Virus record (IMG/VR): IMGVR_UViG_2529292751_000001
Coordinates: 1 to 61,734 of that record
Length of the DNA: 61,734 bases
Origin: a virus
Taxonomy: Duplodnaviria; Heunggongvirae; Uroviricota; Caudoviricetes
Strand: one strand, 5' to 3'
Part shown: piece after piece, positions 19,506 through 58,282 of the stretch
Layout of the letters: each line of letters opens with the position of its first letter
How positions within the stretch are numbered: the stretch's first letter is position 1
Notes under the pieces: model-generated
Database searches by the model: none
What the model saw: the letters and a program-made list of their open reading frames with translations, nothing else
Told to the model about the DNA's origin: nothing
Program-made: the position numbers and the translations under genes

Positions 19506-19644
19506 ATTCTATCGAATTCTCCTTTCCTGCAATATTTTTGCTTAAAGTGCAAAGTCGAAAGCGCTACTGCGCGTGACTATGCACTTATCTCTCTCTTCTT
19601 AATATGGTTCTCCTCTGCTTAAATGGTTCTCTTTTATTAGACCC

Positions 19645-19997
19645 CCAGATTTACACCAATAGGGGGTGTATATTTCCGCCCACCTATCGGAGATTTACAC
19701 CCCCTATTGGTGTAAAATTCCGTATACCCTCGGAGATATACACTAGTAAGGGGTGTAAATCTCCGTATAGGTTAACTTATGAATAAATTCTAACAGAGAA
19801 TATGATATTCTGCAATACTTTTGTTTAATGGGATGCGTTTCAGTAGTGGGAAAAGAGCGCCACCGCGCGACCCCACTACTATCTCTCTCTGCTTCGTCTG
19901 GTTCTCTTATTATTAGACCCCCACATTTACACCCTCTAGTGGTGTAAATCTCCGTATGGTATACGGAAATACGCACCCCTAGAGGGTGTAAATCTCC
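19645..19997. repeat. Five 33-bp palindromes GGAGATTTACACC-N7-GGTGTAAATCTCC (origin-like array)
   Basis: Copies at 19645-19677, 19689-19721, 19732-19764, 19921-19953 and 19965-19997; 43-44 bp period within each cluster. Confidence 0.9.
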
Positions 19998-20086
19998 GTA
20001 TCAGTGAGATGTATAGAAATTTGGGTGAGTGATTTTTGCAGTATAATAGAAGAAACTCGATTTGAATCGAATGAGCCAGAAATTTA

Positions 20087-30880: not shown

Positions 30881-30920
30881 TAACAAGCGAGAAAAAAATT
30901 TTTTAAAGGAGAGAGATAAA

Positions 30921-32365: not shown

Positions 32366-32593
32366 ATGATGCACTTAATAGAGAAACTCAGAAGGTTTAA
32401 GGATGACCAAAACGAATTAGAGCTTTTTGGTCAAATAACTACAAGAAAAAAATCTTGGTTCAAATTTGTCAAATATGAAAACAACGTCTACATACATGCA
32501 TATGTGGGAGGGAATAAGGTGAAAATATTCGATACATGGGAAGAAGCGGAAAAGAAATTGAAAATGTGGATTAATATGTTATTTGGTCATTGA
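32366..32593 (+). CDS. Hypothetical protein
   Basis: 75 aa, AAGGAG RBS; stop overlaps hammerhead stem II. Confidence 0.65.
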   Translation: MMHLIEKLRRFKDDQNELELFGQITTRKKSWFKFVKYENNVYIHAYVGGNKVKIFDTWEEAEKKLKMWINMLFGH

Positions 32594-32660
32594 GGCGAAA
32601 CGCGTGGGAAATCACGCGTATATGGTAGAGTGGTAATCTTCATACTGATGAGCCAAACCA
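32584..32660 (+). ncRNA. Hammerhead ribozyme, type II
   Basis: GGC-GAAA-CGCGTG(GGAAAT)CACGCG-TA-TATG..CATA-CTGATGA-GCC; full core, GUA cleavage triplet, predicted cut after 32620. Confidence 0.88.
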
Positions 32661-32688
32661 TAAATGAAAATAGGGGAGTTGTATACAG

Positions 32689-33366
32689 ATGAAAAATAAT
32701 TTAAAAGAATATAAAAGCAACGCTGATTTTATCGCGGAGGTAGTTGAAACAAAAGAATTAAATAATGAAATCAGAATGACTGACGACAAACAATATCTTG
32801 TAACGCTCCAGAACGCCCACGAGGACGTAAAGGCAGACAGAGATATATTATGTGCTGAGGGAGATTTAGAACGTTGTGTACAGGCGCTGAAGGATAGTAA
32901 AAACAATTGGGTTGAACACATGCAATGGAAAAAACTACACAAGAGCGACTATAAATATTTTTACGCAGAGAAAAAAATTGATGATGTGGATTTAGCCAAG
33001 GTTCAAAGGGTTAAAGAGAAATTCTTTAACATTGGTAAAAATGTTGTATTTATAGTTAGAGATAATGGAAGAGTAATAATAGCGTTTCGAAACAAGGTGA
33101 TTTATGAAGGATTTTTACTTGCGTCATCGCGTGGAGAAGTAAAAGGAGAAAATTGGACTCAATATGGCGCGGAAAAAATTTTATCATGGTCTGATGAAAT
33201 TGATAATTATAATGTGGTGGTTGCTGAATTCTGGACAGATGAAAAACTTGATGATGAATTGAGCGGAGATGCGGATGCGATGTATCGAGCGCATTGGGGA
33301 ATTCAAGAACCTACTGATAGACCACGCTCACCGTTTGATGTATATAGTCATAGTGAATTACTGTAG
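32689..33366 (+). CDS. Hypothetical protein
   Basis: 225 aa, GGGGAG RBS just 3' of the ribozyme. Confidence 0.7.
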   Translation: MKNNLKEYKSNADFIAEVVETKELNNEIRMTDDKQYLVTLQNAHEDVKADRDILCAEGDLERCVQALKDSKNNWVEHMQWKKLHKSDYKYFYAEKKIDDVDLAKVQRVKEKFFNIGKNVVFIVRDNGRVIIAFRNKVIYEGFLLASSRGEVKGENWTQYGAEKILSWSDEIDNYNVVVAEFWTDEKLDDELSGDADAMYRAHWGIQEPTDRPRSPFDVYSHSELL

Positions 33367-33763: not shown

Positions 33764-33847
33764 AAAAATTTTTTTGGCACTTGACTGTTATGGTGTGACG
33801 GTGTAACATCATATTATGAATTTAATTAATGAACTGGAGAGATAAAT

Positions 33848-34219
33848 ATGAAGCTTAGAAGATGGGTAAAAATAGCGCTAGTATTAATGGCATTTGGAGC
33901 AATTGCAGGAATGTTCAAAAGTATGGTATTTGCACAGACAACGGATGAGAAGCCAGAATACAAGGTATATCATGGAGTAATTGAAATGAATTTAAATGGG
34001 AAATCAAAAGTTGTTATGTTAGATGGTAAACTAGGCGAGGATGTCGAAGTCAAGGTAAAGGAAGAGTATAATAAAGGACAAATTATTACAGTAGTATTTG
34101 AAGGTAATAGAGTGGTCGAGGATTACATTACAGAGGGTAAAGAGTTAGATAAGATTCTAGATAAGAATCAAGCTTCTATTAAAGAGGTTAAAGGTAGTAA
34201 AGTATACTTGATGCGTTAA
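33848..34219 (+). CDS. Membrane-anchored protein
   Basis: N-terminal hydrophobic segment; own promoter TTGACT-17-TAACAT (33781-33809). Confidence 0.7.
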   Translation: MKLRRWVKIALVLMAFGAIAGMFKSMVFAQTTDEKPEYKVYHGVIEMNLNGKSKVVMLDGKLGEDVEVKVKEEYNKGQIITVVFEGNRVVEDYITEGKELDKILDKNQASIKEVKGSKVYLMR

Positions 34220-34773: not shown

Positions 34774-34854
34774 ACAAAAGATTTGCAATGTAGTTGATTT
34801 AATGATATGATGTATCACAGACACACAAACCATAATACTGGAGGATGATTTTAA

Positions 34855-50621: not shown

Positions 50622-51278
50622 ATGACAACAGAAATCGTAATGGCGTTACTTTCAATCATTCTAATCGACATCGTATTAAGTGGTGACAACGCGGTGGTTA
50701 TCGCACTAGCCTGTCGTAACCTACCAGAGAAATTGCGTAAGAAGGCAGTAATTATCGGATGTGCAGGGGCAATTGGATTACGAATCGCGCTTACATTCCT
50801 AGCAGTTTACTTACTAGAAATTCCGTATGTTCAATTTGTTGGCGGTCTAATGTTATTGTGGATTGCGGTTAAGCTTTTAAAAGGCGAAGAGGATAGTCAA
50901 ATTGAGGGTGGTAATACAATTTGGTCAGCAATTAAAACAATCATCGTAGCAGACTTTGTAATGAGCTTAGATAACGTTGTAGCGGTAGCAGGAGTAGCGA
51001 ATGGTCACACAGGATTATTAGTAATTGGCTTATTAGTAAGTATTCCATTAATTGTCTGGGGTAGCCAAATCTTAATCAAACTTATGGAACGATTCCCAAT
51101 CATTGTAGCGTTCGGTTCGGCTTTACTTGGATATACAGCAGGAACAATGATGATGCACGATAAGGTTATTGGTGGATGGATTACAGAAAACTTTGCTAAC
51201 ACTCAATTCTTACCAATCTTAATGGCAGTAGCGGTAGTTGTTATTGGGAAGTTAGAAAACAAGCGCTCTTCTAAATAA
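50622..51278 (+). CDS. terC: TerC-family membrane protein (YjbE-like)
   Basis: IDIVLSGDNAVVIALACRNLP and ADFVMSLDNVVAVAG signatures. Confidence 0.92.
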   Translation: MTTEIVMALLSIILIDIVLSGDNAVVIALACRNLPEKLRKKAVIIGCAGAIGLRIALTFLAVYLLEIPYVQFVGGLMLLWIAVKLLKGEEDSQIEGGNTIWSAIKTIIVADFVMSLDNVVAVAGVANGHTGLLVIGLLVSIPLIVWGSQILIKLMERFPIIVAFGSALLGYTAGTMMMHDKVIGGWITENFANTQFLPILMAVAVVVIGKLENKRSSK

Positions 51279-51309
51279 GAGCCTTGCGAACACTTAGGAG
51301 GGGTTAATT

Positions 51310-51501
51310 ATGGCGCAGATAAAAATCGATATCCAAAACTGTGAGCAATGCCCACATTCACAAACGTCTAGAGTATGGACTCCAGATTCATGGGAAACAG
51401 TGAGGAAGGTTCATTGCAAACTATTAAACAAGGATGTTCATTCTTATCTAGATTGGTATGACAAGTCACCAGTCCCAGATGAATGTCCTGCGAAAGCATA
51501 G
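51310..51501 (+). CDS. Small Cys-rich protein
   Basis: CEQCPH..HC..ECP; GGAGGG RBS. Confidence 0.65.
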   Translation: MAQIKIDIQNCEQCPHSQTSRVWTPDSWETVRKVHCKLLNKDVHSYLDWYDKSPVPDECPAKA

Positions 51502-51513
51502 GAGGAGTTAACA

Positions 51514-51726
51514 ATGTCGTTAGTTGCAGGGTTCTTTCAAGCGCATAGCGTGACGAAAAGAGAGATGAATAAACAGTTTGAAAACAAAGGATATAACAGC
51601 CTCAAGGTAAAGAGATTTATATTTGGAAGAGTCTTAGGATACGCTCCAAACATCAAGGACATGACTATTAGCGAGATGGAGCAGGTTATTCATTATCTAA
51701 AAAATACACAATTAGGAGATTCTTAA
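51514..51726 (+). CDS. Hypothetical protein
   Basis: 70 aa, AGGAGG RBS. Confidence 0.65.
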   Translation: MSLVAGFFQAHSVTKREMNKQFENKGYNSLKVKRFIFGRVLGYAPNIKDMTISEMEQVIHYLKNTQLGDS

Positions 51727-51727
51727 T

Positions 51728-51970
51728 ATGATGAAATGCACAGATGGAACTAGATTCAACGGAGTACTAAAAGAAGGTCAAGTTTGGGTGAAAGGAAGAA
51801 CTGTCCGAGTTATAGTTCGATTCGATGAAGACGTTATGGTTTATAAGTCAAATAAGGATTTTAAAGATGGTACGGTCACCACAGTTCGTAGAAGTGTATT
51901 TCGAAGATGGTTAAAGAGTGGAGAAAGAGCGATGTTACAAGTGGGAGGCAATATATATGGACTTTGTTGA
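51728..51970 (+). CDS. Hypothetical protein
   Basis: 80 aa, AGGAG RBS. Confidence 0.6.
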   Translation: MMKCTDGTRFNGVLKEGQVWVKGRTVRVIVRFDEDVMVYKSNKDFKDGTVTTVRRSVFRRWLKSGERAMLQVGGNIYGLC

Positions 51971-52613
51971 TTTAAGGAAGCTAGATTACGTTGCGAAGAG
52001 ATTAGAGAATGAAAAGGAAAATCTTATATCTCTCCTGCCTTCAAGGTTCTCTAGTCGATTAAGAGAAGAATTGTTTGTCAGTGGAGGATGTATATATAGC
52101 TTGTACAACAATCAAGAGCCAAAAAATATTGACACATTTATTAAAAGCAGAGAGCTAGTCAATGAAATTGTAGACTTCTTTTCTAAGCAGAGATTATTTA
52201 TGGGGAGAAGTATTGGAGTCAAAAAAGGCTTCTATCATGGTTTAAATCTTATAATGACTGATAATGCAGTGTCACTTGGTAAATATCAAATTATTACTAG
52301 ATTCACAGGGACACCAGAAGAAGTTATTTCTCAGTTTGATTTTAAGCACAATATGTTTTATGTCAAAGATGGTTCAATTAGCACATTAAGCAATTTCTCT
52401 TATCTATGCGACAACAAGCTTGTCTACAACGATGAAAGAGCAAGGGACATTTGTGGGACTATAATTCGTGTTGCGAAATTTGTAAAACGTGGAATGGATA
52501 TTACCAATGAAGAAATGTCTAAAATGCTATTGAAACTTAATGAGGTAGGATTCAATGAGAGAGAATTAGAGATATTAAGTAATCATCAATCTAATAAAAG
52601 CTTTGGTTCATAA
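51957..52613 (+). CDS. Nucleotidyltransferase-fold protein (polyA-polymerase head-like)
   Basis: VSGGCIYS..KNIDTF, QFDF, RVAKFVKRG; start refined to MDFVDL after GGGAGG. Confidence 0.6.
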   Translation: MDFVDLRKLDYVAKRLENEKENLISLLPSRFSSRLREELFVSGGCIYSLYNNQEPKNIDTFIKSRELVNEIVDFFSKQRLFMGRSIGVKKGFYHGLNLIMTDNAVSLGKYQIITRFTGTPEEVISQFDFKHNMFYVKDGSISTLSNFSYLCDNKLVYNDERARDICGTIIRVAKFVKRGMDITNEEMSKMLLKLNEVGFNERELEILSNHQSNKSFGS

Positions 52614-52624
52614 CATTTCATAAT

Positions 52625-52873
52625 ATGGAGGTAAGTAAGTTGATTAAATCAATAGCTGTAGGAGATAAGATTAAACCAAATTGCAGGTCAAGTTACATGG
52701 AGATTTACAACATCTTTAAATATAAAGGAAGAAAGTATGTTGCTTATATATGGCACAACGAAGATGGTAGTCAGTCAGTATCTATACCAAACTCCAATTA
52801 TTTCTCAAGTCATGTTGCTGAGTTAGAAGATTACTTATCGACAATTGGAGAAGGAAGACATCACAAGATTTAG
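52625..52873 (+). CDS. Hypothetical protein
   Basis: Likely TTG start (LIKSIAV) after GGAGG. Confidence 0.55.
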   Translation: MEVSKLIKSIAVGDKIKPNCRSSYMEIYNIFKYKGRKYVAYIWHNEDGSQSVSIPNSNYFSSHVAELEDYLSTIGEGRHHKI

Positions 52874-53021
52874 AGTGGGAAATTAATAGATTTCTTTCAC
52901 TAAATAGAAAAGAGGGAAATAGTATGCCAGAATCGGATACAGTAAAAATTTTAACCGGAATCGTATGCTTTATAGCAGGGGTTATTGTTAGTAAAATTAC
53001 GAAACAATAGGAGGAGAAATC

Positions 53022-53213
53022 ATGAAAAATAGACAGCAGATTGAAGCTAAGATTGAGGAATTGCGAGATAGCATTACTCAAATGGAGATGCAAAAACAGT
53101 CCTTGTCTGGAGAACGTGATTTTGATGAACAGCTAGATTATTTTGAAATGGAACAGAATTCCCTGCAGGAACAAGTTGACTTATTAAAATGGGTGTTAAA
53201 TGAAGAGGAATAA
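53022..53213 (+). CDS. Small coiled-coil protein
   Basis: 63 aa, AGGAGG RBS. Confidence 0.65.
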   Translation: MKNRQQIEAKIEELRDSITQMEMQKQSLSGERDFDEQLDYFEMEQNSLQEQVDLLKWVLNEEE

Positions 53214-53215
53214 TC

Positions 53216-53425
53216 ATGGCGAGAAAGATTAAGAAAGAAGTATTTTTAACAACGGATGGTACACAAGTATATGTAGATGAATTTAGTGTTAAGAGATTGA
53301 TGCAGATGGTTACAAGAGCGGATATCGTGAATATGTCTACAAATGTAACTAAAGAGGGAGTATGGTTTACGTATTCAACTAGCTACAGTCATGGCTCTAT
53401 GTTTTTAAGCAATCTAGGTAAATAG
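53216..53425 (+). CDS. Hypothetical protein
   Basis: 69 aa, GAGG RBS. Confidence 0.65.
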   Translation: MARKIKKEVFLTTDGTQVYVDEFSVKRLMQMVTRADIVNMSTNVTKEGVWFTYSTSYSHGSMFLSNLGK

Positions 53426-53439
53426 GAGGAAATATATAG

Positions 53440-53691
53440 ATGTACTACGATGGTTACGAATCCAACAAGGCTACATTAGAACGATGTACATTGGTAGAAG
53501 GTGTGAGAAGAGCGTTTGTTCTTGAGAATGGAACAGTGGTTCAGATTGGCAATTTATTATTAGAATTTGAGGACAATGTTCTTCACGAAGTTAAGCCAGA
53601 GTCACCAGATAATATCTTTAATCCAGTCTACAATCGCACAGGAAGACGTTTTACACCAGAACAAATTAATGAAATAACACTTAAACAGTAG
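53440..53691 (+). CDS. Hypothetical protein
   Basis: 83 aa, AGGAGG RBS. Confidence 0.65.
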   Translation: MYYDGYESNKATLERCTLVEGVRRAFVLENGTVVQIGNLLLEFEDNVLHEVKPESPDNIFNPVYNRTGRRFTPEQINEITLKQ

Positions 53692-53706
53692 GGGGGGGGA
53701 ATTACT

Positions 53707-53904
53707 ATGAACAAAAAAGAAAAGGTCGAAGCGTTTCTTGAAGAGTTAAATACATTATCTGAAAAGTATGGATTTGAAATCACATCAGAAGGCAATTCTC
53801 CTTTGCTATACGATATTGAGAAGCAGGAATATCTAGGCGAATTTTGGATGTCGATGTTTACAGGTAAGTATGCAATAGGCGGAAATGAAATATCTTGTGA
53901 TTAA
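53707..53904 (+). CDS. Hypothetical protein
   Basis: 65 aa, G-run RBS. Confidence 0.6.
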   Translation: MNKKEKVEAFLEELNTLSEKYGFEITSEGNSPLLYDIEKQEYLGEFWMSMFTGKYAIGGNEISCD

Positions 53905-53926
53905 ATCACATTTATGAGGTGATAAT

Positions 53927-54145
53927 ATGGCATTTGAAAAGAAATTTGCATGCAAAGGCGATGGAAATGAAAGCGATGTTCTCATAGTTGAGCAACAGAA
54001 ATATCCAAATCGTAGCTTGATATGGCTTGAAGCAAGGACTAAGGAAGAAGATGGAAAAGTAAATGAAACTTGCGTAGCTATAACAAGAAGAGAGTTTATG
54101 GAAATATACAATTCTATTGATTGGGAAGGCGTAGAATACGATTAA
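53927..54145 (+). CDS. Hypothetical protein
   Basis: 72 aa, GAGGTG RBS. Confidence 0.65.
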   Translation: MAFEKKFACKGDGNESDVLIVEQQKYPNRSLIWLEARTKEEDGKVNETCVAITRREFMEIYNSIDWEGVEYD

Positions 54146-54173
54146 TAAAAACTACATTTTATGAGGTTAGAAT

Positions 54174-54389
54174 ATGAACGAGTACAAGATATTGTTCTCT
54201 ATGTTTCTCATAGTTGGTGAGAATAAAATAAGCACAAAGAATCATTTCTCTAATTGTCATGCCACAATCAAAGGTGAAAGTTATGAGGAAGCTTTAAAGC
54301 CTTTCAAGGAAGAGAAGCGAAAAGAAGGATGGTATGTAGTTACATTAGAGGGAATTTATAGACAACATGATTATATTATGAAGAGGTGA
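54174..54389 (+). CDS. Hypothetical protein
   Basis: 71 aa, GAGG RBS. Confidence 0.6.
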   Translation: MNEYKILFSMFLIVGENKISTKNHFSNCHATIKGESYEEALKPFKEEKRKEGWYVVTLEGIYRQHDYIMKR

Positions 54390-54979
54390 ATGAAGTGCCA
54401 GTACACGAAGGTAAGTATCAATGTTTAAAGTGTGAAGATGTATTTGAAGCAAAAAGTGGCAGTTATACAAAGTGTAAATGTGGAGAATCTGAAATCGAAC
54501 CAAATTATTTTGGATACCGTTATAGAAATGGCAATAGAGTCGAAACCATCGAAAGTAAAACTTATTATCTTGAAGATGAGTTTGTGAAATTGCCAAATGA
54601 CATTCAAGAGATTTATAAAGAAATTAAAGAAATAAAAGAGCAGACAGGGTATAAATACCATATATTTGAAATGCACGAAACAGGTAAAGAAGGGGAAAGG
54701 TATCTGTCTCAAATTAACTTAGAGCATAATGTATCTGTATCACTTTATACGAGCGAAAGAAACACGATTAGCCTAACTCTACAATTAAGTAAGAGAGATT
54801 ATCGTGGAGATGAAATTACAAAATCAAGACTAGAAAAGTTCTTAAATTATATGAAGTTAATAGAATCAAACGAATTAGATGCTTCGAGTAGGCGAAAGCT
54901 ACTTGACATTGCTAAAAAGGATGATTTGGAATACAGAGAAGAACCAACAGGAGATGTTAATTACACTTTCTATCTATAA
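54386..54979 (+). CDS. Phage protein with N-terminal Zn ribbon
   Basis: CLKCED..CKCG; 197 aa. Confidence 0.65.
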   Translation: MNEVPVHEGKYQCLKCEDVFEAKSGSYTKCKCGESEIEPNYFGYRYRNGNRVETIESKTYYLEDEFVKLPNDIQEIYKEIKEIKEQTGYKYHIFEMHETGKEGERYLSQINLEHNVSVSLYTSERNTISLTLQLSKRDYRGDEITKSRLEKFLNYMKLIESNELDASSRRKLLDIAKKDDLEYREEPTGDVNYTFYL

Positions 54980-55010
54980 ATAAATTATATTTTACAAAGG
55001 AGATATATTA

Positions 55011-55724
55011 GTGAGCAAATTAATCGATTTAAATAAGAAAGCACAGATTGTATTAGAAAAGAAAGCTATTTTTGGTGAGAAGGCACAGGTTGTATTTATT
55101 ACCGATATTTCAGTTTCTATGGGAAGCCTTTATAGAAATGGAACAATGCAAGAACTAACTGATAGAGCACTTGGGATTGGCATGAGCTTGGATATTGATA
55201 AAAGTATTGATATGTTCGCATTCGGAAGATATGCACACGAGATTGGCTCTGTAACAGAAGGTAATCATCAAGGGTTCGTAGACAATGTCTTGTTACAAAA
55301 AACATCATTAGAAAGCTCAACTTATTACGCAGAAGTAATGGATATGGTTGTAAGGAGATATGGACAACCTGTTAAAAAGGGATTGCTATCACGAATAATG
55401 GGGAGTAAAAATACTGAAAAGCCTACTATACCTACGTTAGTTTTCTTCATTACAGATGGTGATAACTTCGATAAAAAAGAGGCGGAAGATATTATTCGTA
55501 AATCATCTATCCATCCAATCTTCTGGCAATTTGTCGGTATCGGTGGGGCGAATTTTGAGTTCTTAAGAAAGCTTGATGATATGTCTGGTAGATTCATAGA
55601 CAATGCCGACTTCTTTAATATTAATGACCTGCGAGGAATCAGTGATGAAGAGTTTATGGACAGGGTTTTAAATGAGTTCCCACAGTGGATTAAGAAAGCA
55701 AGAGCGAAAGGAGTATTAGCATGA
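55011..55724 (+). CDS. vWA domain protein (vWA-TerF-like)
   Basis: DISVSM MIDAS motif, FFITDGDN, PIFWQFVGIG, LDDMSGRFIDNADFF. Confidence 0.88.
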   Translation: MSKLIDLNKKAQIVLEKKAIFGEKAQVVFITDISVSMGSLYRNGTMQELTDRALGIGMSLDIDKSIDMFAFGRYAHEIGSVTEGNHQGFVDNVLLQKTSLESSTYYAEVMDMVVRRYGQPVKKGLLSRIMGSKNTEKPTIPTLVFFITDGDNFDKKEAEDIIRKSSIHPIFWQFVGIGGANFEFLRKLDDMSGRFIDNADFFNINDLRGISDEEFMDRVLNEFPQWIKKARAKGVLA

Positions 55725-56431
55725 GCGAAAAACAAAAAGAATTAAGACCAGTAAGAGTTAACTATACTTGCGATGAGTGCAAGGATACAGAGCTGAAATT
55801 TACAGGGATGATAAAGCCAATAAGCCCTCCTCTATACGTCCATAAATGCACTAAATGTAAGAAGATATTTAATTTAAACAAGCAATATCCATCAGTAGAA
55901 TATAAGGAGATTAATACTGTTGAAAAAGCACTATTTAAAGTTCCTATAGGAGATTGGTCAAACGATGGACATAATCAGTCAGAAGATTATTATGTATACT
56001 GCAATTACCCTGTAGAAGCGATGAGGCAAGCATACAAGGATACGTGTAAAAAGATTGGGTTACAAATGAATCACAATGAAAATTATACAGGGATTGAAGG
56101 CTTGGGATATCGTACATGGAGATACTTATTAACGGAATATGAAGAATCAAACATTAGTGTAGATGCGGTTGAAATCCTACTAAACCATGGGTTCAAGTTT
56201 AGCGAAGATGAATTGCCTAGTGATGAATTTGAGTATCATGATGGAAGATTTATAGCTGTTAGTTCAGTTAGCGCATCGACAGAAACAGTATTTAAACTAT
56301 TTATGTGGTTCATTTCTTACAGTATGCCGAAGGATTTTGAGTGGGAAGAACTAAACCTTGAAGCAGAACCAATTGTTGGGTATTGGAACAAGGGGTTAAA
56401 TCAACAAATTGGATATGGAGTATTTTCTTAA
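55721..56431 (+). CDS. Phage protein: N-terminal Zn ribbon fused to conserved domain
   Basis: CDEC..CTKC, then GDWSNDGHNQ..IGYGVF. Confidence 0.7.
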   Translation: MSEKQKELRPVRVNYTCDECKDTELKFTGMIKPISPPLYVHKCTKCKKIFNLNKQYPSVEYKEINTVEKALFKVPIGDWSNDGHNQSEDYYVYCNYPVEAMRQAYKDTCKKIGLQMNHNENYTGIEGLGYRTWRYLLTEYEESNISVDAVEILLNHGFKFSEDELPSDEFEYHDGRFIAVSSVSASTETVFKLFMWFISYSMPKDFEWEELNLEAEPIVGYWNKGLNQQIGYGVFS

Positions 56432-56463
56432 TACAAAATAAACAATTAATTTGGAGGGCTTTT

Positions 56464-56838
56464 ATGGTCAAAGTTATTGTAGCAGGTAGCAGGAAGTTCA
56501 ATGATTACAAGAAATTAGCTACGAATCTTGTAGCCTACTTTATGAGAAAAGGATATTATCCTAAAGATGTTGAGATTATTAGCGGTACAGCAGGTGGTGC
56601 AGATAAACTTGGCGAGAAATTTGCGAAAAAGGCAGGTTGTAAGCTTACTAGAATGCCCGCAGATTGGGATGGGCTAGGCAAGAAGGCAGGGTTTATTAGA
56701 AACTGGGATATGGCAAAATATGCAGGCTCAGACGGTGTTTGCTTCTGCTTCTGGGATGGGAATAGTAAGGGTACTAAGCACATGATTGACCTAGCTCGCA
56801 AAGAAGGATTAGAGGTACATGTTATTATTTTTTCTTAA
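56464..56838 (+). CDS. SLOG-family (DUF2493-like) protein
   Basis: VIVAGSRKF, IISGTAGGAD, AGFIRNWDM, FWDGNSKGTKHMI; start refined. Confidence 0.85.
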   Translation: MVKVIVAGSRKFNDYKKLATNLVAYFMRKGYYPKDVEIISGTAGGADKLGEKFAKKAGCKLTRMPADWDGLGKKAGFIRNWDMAKYAGSDGVCFCFWDGNSKGTKHMIDLARKEGLEVHVIIFS

Positions 56839-56902
56839 AAATATTTAAACAAAAGTATTGCACAAAATAAAAAACGGATATATAATTAGGAGGAAGTTAA
56901 GG

Positions 56903-58090
56903 ATGATTGAAGTTCAAGGAAAGTTTAATGAAGCAAAGGTATTTACGAACAATGTAGACGAGGCATCTATCGCTCAGATTATCGAGCTATGCAATCAAGA
57001 GTTTACTAAAGGCAGTAAGATTCGAATGATGCCAGATGTTCATGCAGGAGCAGGATGTACAATTGGTACTACAATGACGATTCAAGACAAAGTCGTAGCA
57101 AATCTCGTAGGTGTTGACATAGGTTGTGGGATGGCTGTAGCAAAGATTAGAATCTCTAAAGAAGATATTAACTTTGACCAGTTAGACCAAGTGATTAGAA
57201 AGTATGTACCAAGTGGAAATGAGATTCGTGAGACACCTCATGTACTATCTTATGGTACAGGTATTGATAGTCTTATAACACCATTAAACGTTGATAGAGC
57301 AATGAAAAGTATTGGCAGTTTAGGTGGAGGGAATCATTTTTGTGAGCTAAATGAAGGCTCAGATGGCTCTATATATCTTGTAATCCACAGTGGTTCACGA
57401 TATTTAGGGAAAATGGTAGCCGAATATCATCAAAAGGTTGCATATAGTAGAATTATGGATATGCGAGATGCTAAACAGGAAATCATTGATAACCTAAAGG
57501 CTCAAGGAAGAGAACGCGAAATTCATCAAGCGCTAAGAGGCATTAAGAAACCAAAGTTCAAGAAGGAATTAGCTTGGCTCGAAGGTCAAGATTTTAAGAA
57601 CTATATGCATGATATGAAGATTGCACAGCACTATGCGTTATCGAATCGTAAAGCGATGATAGAGACAATAGTAAATCATATGGGATGGAATGTAGTTAGC
57701 ATGTTCGACACAATTCATAACTATATTGATATTGAGAATATGATTCTTCGTAAAGGTGCGATATCTGCACAGAAAGATGAGAAGGTTATTATTCCAATGA
57801 ATATGCGTGACGGTAGCTTAATAGCATACGGGAAAGGGAATCCAGACTGGAACTTCTCAGCTCCTCATGGTGCAGGTCGTATTATGTCTCGCTCAAAAGC
57901 TAAACAAAATGTGTCACTAGAAGAATTCCAAGATACGATGAAAGGCATATGGACTTCATCTGTTGGTGAAAGCACGATTGACGAAGCTCCAATGGCATAC
58001 AAGCCTATGGAAGATATAATTAATAACGTAGGAGATGCTGTCGATATTTCCGACATTATAAAACCGCTATACAACTTTAAAGCAAACTAA
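56903..58090 (+). CDS. rtcB: RtcB-family RNA ligase
   Basis: MPDVHAG, GVDIGCG, SLGGGNHF, HSGSR, HNY, SAPHGAGR and IDEAPMAYK motifs; start refined to ATG 56903. Confidence 0.95.
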   Translation: MIEVQGKFNEAKVFTNNVDEASIAQIIELCNQEFTKGSKIRMMPDVHAGAGCTIGTTMTIQDKVVANLVGVDIGCGMAVAKIRISKEDINFDQLDQVIRKYVPSGNEIRETPHVLSYGTGIDSLITPLNVDRAMKSIGSLGGGNHFCELNEGSDGSIYLVIHSGSRYLGKMVAEYHQKVAYSRIMDMRDAKQEIIDNLKAQGREREIHQALRGIKKPKFKKELAWLEGQDFKNYMHDMKIAQHYALSNRKAMIETIVNHMGWNVVSMFDTIHNYIDIENMILRKGAISAQKDEKVIIPMNMRDGSLIAYGKGNPDWNFSAPHGAGRIMSRSKAKQNVSLEEFQDTMKGIWTSSVGESTIDEAPMAYKPMEDIINNVGDAVDISDIIKPLYNFKAN

Positions 58091-58102
58091 GGGGTGTTGC
58101 TA

Positions 58103-58282
58103 ATGCAATATGCACTGGAAGTATTGCAAGAAAGAAGAGATGTCATTGAAAAAATGGTTAAATTATCTAAGGCAGAAGATAACTGGTACGAATTCGATGG
58201 TATTGAAGAAAAGCTTCGAGACCTCGATGAAGCAGTCTACTGCATTAAAATGGGAGGATGTAAGTATGGGAAGCATGATTAG
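58103..58282 (+). CDS. Hypothetical protein
   Basis: Short ORF after GGGGTG RBS. Confidence 0.55.
   Translation: MQYALEVLQERRDVIEKMVKLSKAEDNWYEFDGIEEKLRDLDEAVYCIKMGGCKYGKHD

Follow-up and report, generated by a model that had tools for sequence, protein, structure and literature searches.

A predicted type II hammerhead ribozyme between small genes of a Bacillus cereus-group phage persists in relatives that have lost the phage rtcB gene

Introduction

Hammerhead ribozymes cleave RNA and leave 2',3'-cyclic phosphate and 5'-OH ends. The type II class (RF02276, clan CL00010) and its setting between phage genes were described in 2011 by Perreault et al. (PMC3088659), who showed cleavage in vitro, reported hammerheads beside ardA and proposed that the ribozymes process polycistronic phage RNA. 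Ligated or circular products of these phage hammerheads were sought in the same study and were undetected. In vivo cleavage by type II hammerheads was later shown in Desulfovibrio vulgaris by Olzog et al. 2021 (PMC8782182), and the role of hammerheads in bacteria and phages is still an open question (PMC6765202). RNase J1 is reported to degrade 5'-OH ribozyme products rapidly in Gram-positive bacteria (PMC7967978), and RtcB-type RNA repair ligases in large phages are associated with tRNA repair (PMC7824862).

Here we analysed a window of 61,734 nucleotides. It makes up the first half of a virus record of 126,404 bp, whose ends overlap by 95 bp and whose GC content is 36%. The element in this window resembles the type II class in its core, short open stem II, hairpin stems I and III, pseudoknot and intergenic site among small phage genes (PMC3088659). 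It differs in an AU-rich, weak and bulged stem I, a score under the Rfam cut-off, a strong competing fold, a GUA triplet and occurrence as a single copy, not a cluster. Like the D. vulgaris hammerheads it lies near hypothetical and phage-like genes; those hammerheads were shown to cleave in vivo, whereas this one is predicted and would act in a Gram-positive host with a 5' exonuclease (PMC8782182). Like the glmS ribozyme, whose product is subject to RNase J1 decay (PMC6765202, PMC7967978), it would cleave itself before a start codon and leave a 5'-OH message in a Bacillus cell; it differs in belonging to another ribozyme class, having no known ligand, lying inside an operon and giving a product predicted to start with paired bases. 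Viroids and retrozymes, in which hammerhead cleavage is coupled to ligase circularisation, share the end chemistry (PMC6765202, PMC7229834); they need two ribozymes or multimeric RNA, whereas one ribozyme was found in this genome and rtcB is dispensable in relatives. Phages with RtcB repair ligases (PMC7824862) are alike in being large and tRNA-encoding, with YAcAr, TerF-vWA and TerC genes nearby and a second RNA ligase elsewhere, but here rtcB is missing from most close relatives and its repair role is predicted by analogy.

A type II hammerhead between small phage genes

The element contains the hammerhead core, CUGANGA and GAAA with an NUH triplet and the A15.1-U16.1 pair (Table 1). [quoted passage not shown] Loop I and the 3' tail can form a pseudoknot of 5 bp (GUGGU/ACCAU; criterion, at least 4 bp), which is unchanged in the five haplotypes found among relatives and hence shows no covariation. 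Thus an earlier note on this DNA, made from the sequence alone, was right about a complete core and three stems, as every core base, the stem order and the pseudoknot can be read directly. The extent it gave, 32584-32660, holds for the element itself, as 32594-32661, and fails for 32584-32593, which is the end of the upstream ORF and is unconserved in relatives. Its predicted cut after 32620 agrees with the GUA triplet, and the distance of 68 nt from the cut to the downstream ATG was confirmed. Two candidate additions were rejected. A 5' extension pairing UGGU 32584-87 with ACCA 32657-60 is absent in relatives with other upstream genes, and the tail AAACCATAA is not ribozyme-specific, since it likewise precedes the RBS at 34828, where there is no ribozyme.

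Table 1. Positions of the ribozyme parts, the flanking genes and rtcB in the window
Feature	Position	Strand	Basis or remark
Type II hammerhead ribozyme including pseudoknot tail (predicted)	32594..32661	+	conservation in relatives begins at 32594
Stem II, 5' strand GGC	32594..32596	+	pairs with GCC 32652-32654; unchanged in 5 haplotypes
Core GAAA (G12 A13 A14 A15.1)	32597..32600	+	sequence; invariant
Stem III hairpin, 8 bp, GAAA loop	32600..32619	+	32600-07 with 32612-19; pairing probability ~1.0
GUA triplet; predicted cut 32620/32621	32618..32620	+	hammerhead consensus
Stem I hairpin	32621..32644	+	UAUGG 32621-25/UCAUA 32640-44, bulged U, then AGA/UCU
Loop I pseudoknot strand GUGGU	32630-34	+	partner ACCAU 32657-61
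Core CUGAUGA (C3-A9)	32645..32651	+	sequence; invariant
3' tail ACCAUA	32657..32662	+	pseudoknot with loop I, or alternative partner UAUGGU 32621-26 (inactive/product fold)
Upstream 75-aa ORF	32366..32593	+	TGA 32591-93 abuts ribozyme; other genes replace this ORF in relatives
Shine-Dalgarno-like TAGGGGAG of downstream gene	32670..32678	+	outside ribozyme fold; unpaired in product fold
Downstream 225-aa ORF, ATG at 32689	32689..33366	+	close homologues are named B. cereus-group proteins
rtcB RNA ligase	56903..58090	+	accessory gene; promoter-like site 56847-56883

A descriptor covering the three hammerhead types returned one site in the 126,404 bp, both strands included. With a loose descriptor, 200 dinucleotide shuffles of the window gave 50 matches (0.25 per window), none of which had stems equally long. 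A single-family search with RF02276 aligned 32593-32658 with model positions 1-66, the full length. The score was 27.8 bits (E 8.6e-5), short of the gathering threshold of 37 bits, and cmscan against Rfam reported no hammerhead, whether given the window or a 400-nt stretch; several clear type II examples at other loci are likewise missing from the gathering-level list. Model R1, which was built from 57 unrelated phage hammerheads, gave the element 51.7 bits (E 3e-11), a score that is partly by construction because the training set shares the search pattern. Judged by its sequence, the element is a genuine type II hammerhead and belongs to the class already described.

Among other phages, a pattern scan of IMG/VR yielded 53 loci, nearly all of them well-formed type II hammerheads, often several per phage, and many exceed the Rfam cut-off. 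A pseudoknot of at least 4 bp is present in 43 of 69 distinct examples. The GUA triplet occurs in 13 of the 69, GUC being the commonest. In unrelated phages the stop of the upstream ORF lies within 5 nt of the ribozyme start in 30 of the 63 examples that have such an ORF, and the median distance from cut to start is 59 nt. The placement found here (0 nt from the stop, 68 nt to the start) is typical of the class. Four unrelated phages (L004, L009, L033, L043) carry 5-9 type II hammerheads in 3-7 kb, each between small genes; no RtcB is encoded in the L004, L033 and L043 records.

The genes of the window include terminase, portal, replication initiator, partition protein, a sigma factor and 11 tRNAs. 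The capsid protein shares 31-37% identity with its counterparts in Brevibacillus phage Sundance, SPbeta-like phages, phiCD211 and Tsamsa. Homologues of the 32689-33366 gene lie on ~124-129 kb contigs labelled B. cereus, B. mycoides and B. thuringiensis, and this identifies the source, as far as sequence can, as a B. cereus-group phage, probably a plasmid prophage. The flanking genes matched nothing among protein families or in the Atlas. When the ribozyme and its flanks were compared with named phages by BLASTn, the matches were short and at chance level with one exception, a 155-nt match (69%) inside the downstream gene. Searching viral contigs with the capsid protein and the two sets of flanking proteins as queries recovered a single relative, and scans of GTDB and metagenomes recovered none. 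The ribozyme lies within a run of small same-strand genes, and no terminator was predicted on the + strand between 29211 and 35394; the proposal that cleavage would split a probable polycistronic mRNA is supported. The label "early" for this operon is plausible, judged by position.

Repeats were also observed elsewhere in the genome. About 27 exact-core copies of TTAAACAAAAG(T/A)(A/T)TTGC occur genome-wide, at positions including 21897, 21993, 24026, 28803, 30322, 34772, 39708, 47679, 56847, 59493, 60118 and 61494, and many copies resemble a -35 box with a -10 box after it, a possible promoter or operator. Intergenic palindromes made of 6-7 A and then 5-7 T were found at 30892, 33378, 33763, 34273, 47733 and 48572, often after GGCG or GCG and shortly 5' of an RBS or promoter. 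The region 19600-20000, a non-coding gap ahead of the replication initiator gene, contains several long imperfect inverted repeats and is possibly an origin or a small-RNA region.

Conservation of the ribozyme amid gene replacement

Close relatives have the ribozyme at the same site, as five haplotypes. No change occurs among the five in the core, stem II, pseudoknot or first 4 bp of stem I, and the outer part of stem I is weak and variable. Stem III is the variable part, with mostly pair-preserving changes; two pairs are altered on both sides, both in L085. Across the haplotypes 94.8% of cells are paired. The double changes come from one haplotype and 24 of 500 shuffles scored as high, so statistical support for covariation is weak. 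L084 has a C-A mismatch adjoining the core. Compared with three relatives, identity is 0.99, 0.93 and 0.90 in the ribozyme, 0.81, 0.70 and 0.59 in the adjacent spacer (the next 26 nt), and 0.94, 0.89 and 0.89 in the downstream CDS. Four different upstream genes occur among the relatives, with the stop always 0-7 nt before GGC. The RBS 3' of the ribozyme is kept in all relatives, and in L085 the ribozyme and RBS stand ahead of a different gene.

More distant relatives (60-66% protein identity) have no hammerhead at this site; theirs is a different one, also of type II, 1.3-1.5 kb farther along the cluster (L087:6073-6140, L088:5961-6029, L089 and L090:5582-5650, L091:5478-5546). It has an extra U after the core (CUGAUGA-U-GGC) and a GCC/GGC stem II, and sits just before the homologue of the window gene 33848-34219. 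Because the ribozyme is conserved while the spacer drifts, flanking genes are swapped and distant relatives have a different hammerhead in the cluster, the comparison favours a selected, modular unit of ribozyme plus RBS. As side observations, the L091 hammerhead is directly 3' of a sigma-A-like promoter, the counterpart site in the window has a promoter-like sequence (33781-33809) without a ribozyme, and an ardA gene (L089 and L090:954-1742) lies in the hammerhead-bearing cluster.

The ribozyme and the phage rtcB gene

The RtcB gene proposed at 56903-58090 is real: the protein matches PF01139 at 215 bits against a cut-off of 27, with intact DVHAG, GNHF, HSGSR, HGAGR and EAPMAYK motifs. Its promoter-like site is a copy of the genome-wide repeat followed by TATAAT, 24 kb from the ribozyme. 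The closest complete relative, G001 (88.6% identity over 89% of the genome), has an identical ribozyme and no rtcB. The deletion corresponds to window 56895-58077 against G001 93543-93546, where a short scar joins what is left, the RBS and the last few codons. The identical scar was observed at 8/8 further relative loci (L093-L100) at which the syntenic site was examined, nine loci with G001, and three of the eight are on contigs that bear the ribozyme variants L081, L084 and L085. The rtcB-positive lineage is the minority. As the scar is common to all these loci, rtcB was probably lost once, and the ribozyme afterwards persisted and varied without it; the pattern implies, on comparative grounds, that the ancestor of the phage group carried both. 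No RtcB of 70%-100% identity was present among the scored candidates.

RtcB was found in 0/37 hammerhead-bearing virus records (0/14 near-complete ones). Given a base rate of 1.3% (658 of 50,697 named phage records match RtcB), this tally means that RtcB is not required for a hammerhead and does not demonstrate depletion. Conversely, model R1 found a type II hammerhead in 0/5 RtcB-encoding Bacillus phages. B. cereus-group chromosomes often encode their own RtcB, and ligation of the ribozyme products by the host enzyme is possible. The phage rtcB more likely serves tRNA repair, by analogy, because there are 11 tRNA genes, a second, ATP-dependent RNA ligase (PF09414, at about 68951-69847 of G000, L075:7952-8848; missing in G001) and YAcAr, TerF-vWA and TerC neighbours. 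These comparisons place rtcB outside the ribozyme system and indicate that the ribozyme is independent of it.

The TerC, TerF-vWA and YAcAr (SLOG) genes lie in an accessory island at 50622-56838. At this island the relatives L093-L100 have an anti-Pycsar Apyc1 gene, and one has a DUF4326/NADAR-like gene; no Apyc1 match was found among the window proteins scanned. In Bacillus phage BCP8-2 (L103, record 56068-58191) RtcB is a protein of ~707 aa whose match is split in two, and this points to an intein or another kind of insertion.

Weak stem I and a competing fold

Stem I is predicted at -2.7 kcal/mol, weaker than in all 69 comparison hammerheads (median -10.9). Equilibrium folding favours an inactive fold by 4-5.6 kcal/mol with the pseudoknot term left out. 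On the same terms, the active fold is the predicted minimum only for 32594-32656, and adding the tail shifts it to the inactive fold. Shortly before the tail is transcribed, stems I and II are populated; with the tail present, the inactive 6-bp helix UAUGGU/ACCAUA has a probability of 0.89-0.98. At one transcript length, stem II rose from 0.07 to 0.84 when the upstream CDS was blocked. In 5/5 haplotypes the lowest-energy prediction is the inactive fold. ViennaRNA scores neither the pseudoknot nor tertiary contacts of the core, and a comparable gap between active and inactive folds occurs in 14/69 other hammerheads; a perfect complement of at least 6 nt to the product 5' end occurs in 1/69. The very weak stem I and the competing fold may, in these models, limit cleavage. 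In the 3' product of cleavage the first three bases are predicted to be paired (p 0.87-0.99), as are the 5' bases in 58/69 other hammerheads, and its 5' hairpin is predicted at -10.5 kcal/mol, weaker than the class median of -19.0.

Discussion

We consider that the stand-alone hammerhead could well serve to process a polycistronic mRNA of the phage independently of its RtcB, and we put the chances of this at about even. During transcription stem III would fold first, then stem I and then stem II. The RNA would be cut after A32620, and the pieces would part because the 3-bp stem II alone joins them. The upstream genes would keep a 3' stem III hairpin with a cyclic phosphate. The downstream gene would gain a leader of constant length, 68 nt, with its first bases paired in stem I or in the UAUGGU/ACCAUA helix, and this paired end would slow entry of 5' exonucleases. 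Expression of the downstream gene would thus be uncoupled from whatever stands upstream. We counted for this reading the full consensus with pseudoknot, conservation of ribozyme and RBS amid upstream swaps, class-typical placement and persistence after rtcB loss, and against it the competing fold, covariation from one haplotype, the L084 mismatch and RNase J1 decay.

If RNase J1 did degrade the 5'-OH product, as after glmS cleavage, the effect on the downstream gene would be reversed and cleavage would lower its expression. This step-down is rather unlikely. The Bacillus host and the weak product hairpin fit it, as does the decay of glmS and hammerhead 3' products by RNase J1, as given in PMC7967978, citing Collins 2007; the predicted pairing of the first three product bases, retention of the RBS after the ribozyme in all relatives and the frequency of the same design in phages of many kinds argue against it. 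It is unlikely, too, that the element is a two-state, self-limiting hammerhead, in which ACCAUA pairs with loop I in the active state and with UAUGGU 32621-26 in the inactive one, so that cleavage occurs in a brief transcriptional window or depends on ribosomes at the abutting stop and leaves cut and uncut mRNA in proportions that are fixed or tunable. The weakest stem I among 70 examples, the inactive helix that takes over from stems I and II once the tail is made, the response of stem II to blocking the upstream CDS, the rarity of such a complement and the inactive minimum in every haplotype all point to it. Against this, the program is blind to pseudoknot and tertiary contacts, similar gaps occur in other hammerheads, the bases involved are almost invariant and so give no covariation for the alternative helix, L085 shortens that helix, and a weak stem I may merely reflect a genome of 36% GC. 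A fuller version is quite doubtful. In it the duplicated UGGU would let the tail either complete the pseudoknot or lock the inactive fold, the speed of transcription or ribosomes at the stop would determine cleavage, and the helix of the inactive fold would afterwards cap the downstream message at its 5' end; if true, this phage mRNA would contain a hammerhead that is tuned by nature and works without a ligase.

That the ribozyme arrived with a gene cassette and no longer matters, as a decaying or neutral relic, is very improbable. Its score under the Rfam cut-off, weak and variable outer stem I and L084 mismatch beside the core would suit a relic, and the relatives are only ~10% diverged, but core, stem II, inner stem I and pseudoknot stayed unchanged while identity in the adjacent spacer fell to 59-81%, and the remodelling of stem III preserved its pairing. 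Least probable is religation by the phage RtcB, which the earlier note had proposed as a reversible mRNA switch or a source of RNA circles or chimeras. It had the cleavage ends right, the chemistry being established for hammerheads, and these suit RtcB (PMC8782182). The intact gene encodes RtcB-type motifs, the shared scar implies an ancestor with both, and the host may provide RtcB. However, the coupling is unsupported because close relatives, G001 with its identical ribozyme and the three ribozyme-bearing contigs among the eight further scar loci, keep the ribozyme with rtcB deleted. Circles or chimeras bounded by ribozymes lack support since no second ribozyme was found in the whole genome by descriptor, RF02276, model R1 or Rfam. 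The want of a 70%-100% identical RtcB among scored candidates, the tallies of 0/37 and 0/5, the undetected ligated or circular products of other phage hammerheads (PMC3088659), and the tRNA genes and second ligase that indicate tRNA repair (PMC7824862) weigh in the same direction. Religation would moreover rebuild a ribozyme able to cut again.

Processing of the phage mRNA would place this element within what is described for type II hammerheads. No new system is revealed, and the comparative data count against a switch made of ribozyme and RtcB. The example is a handy test case, with a single copy, cultivable hosts, natural variants, and sister phages with rtcB and with rtcB deleted.
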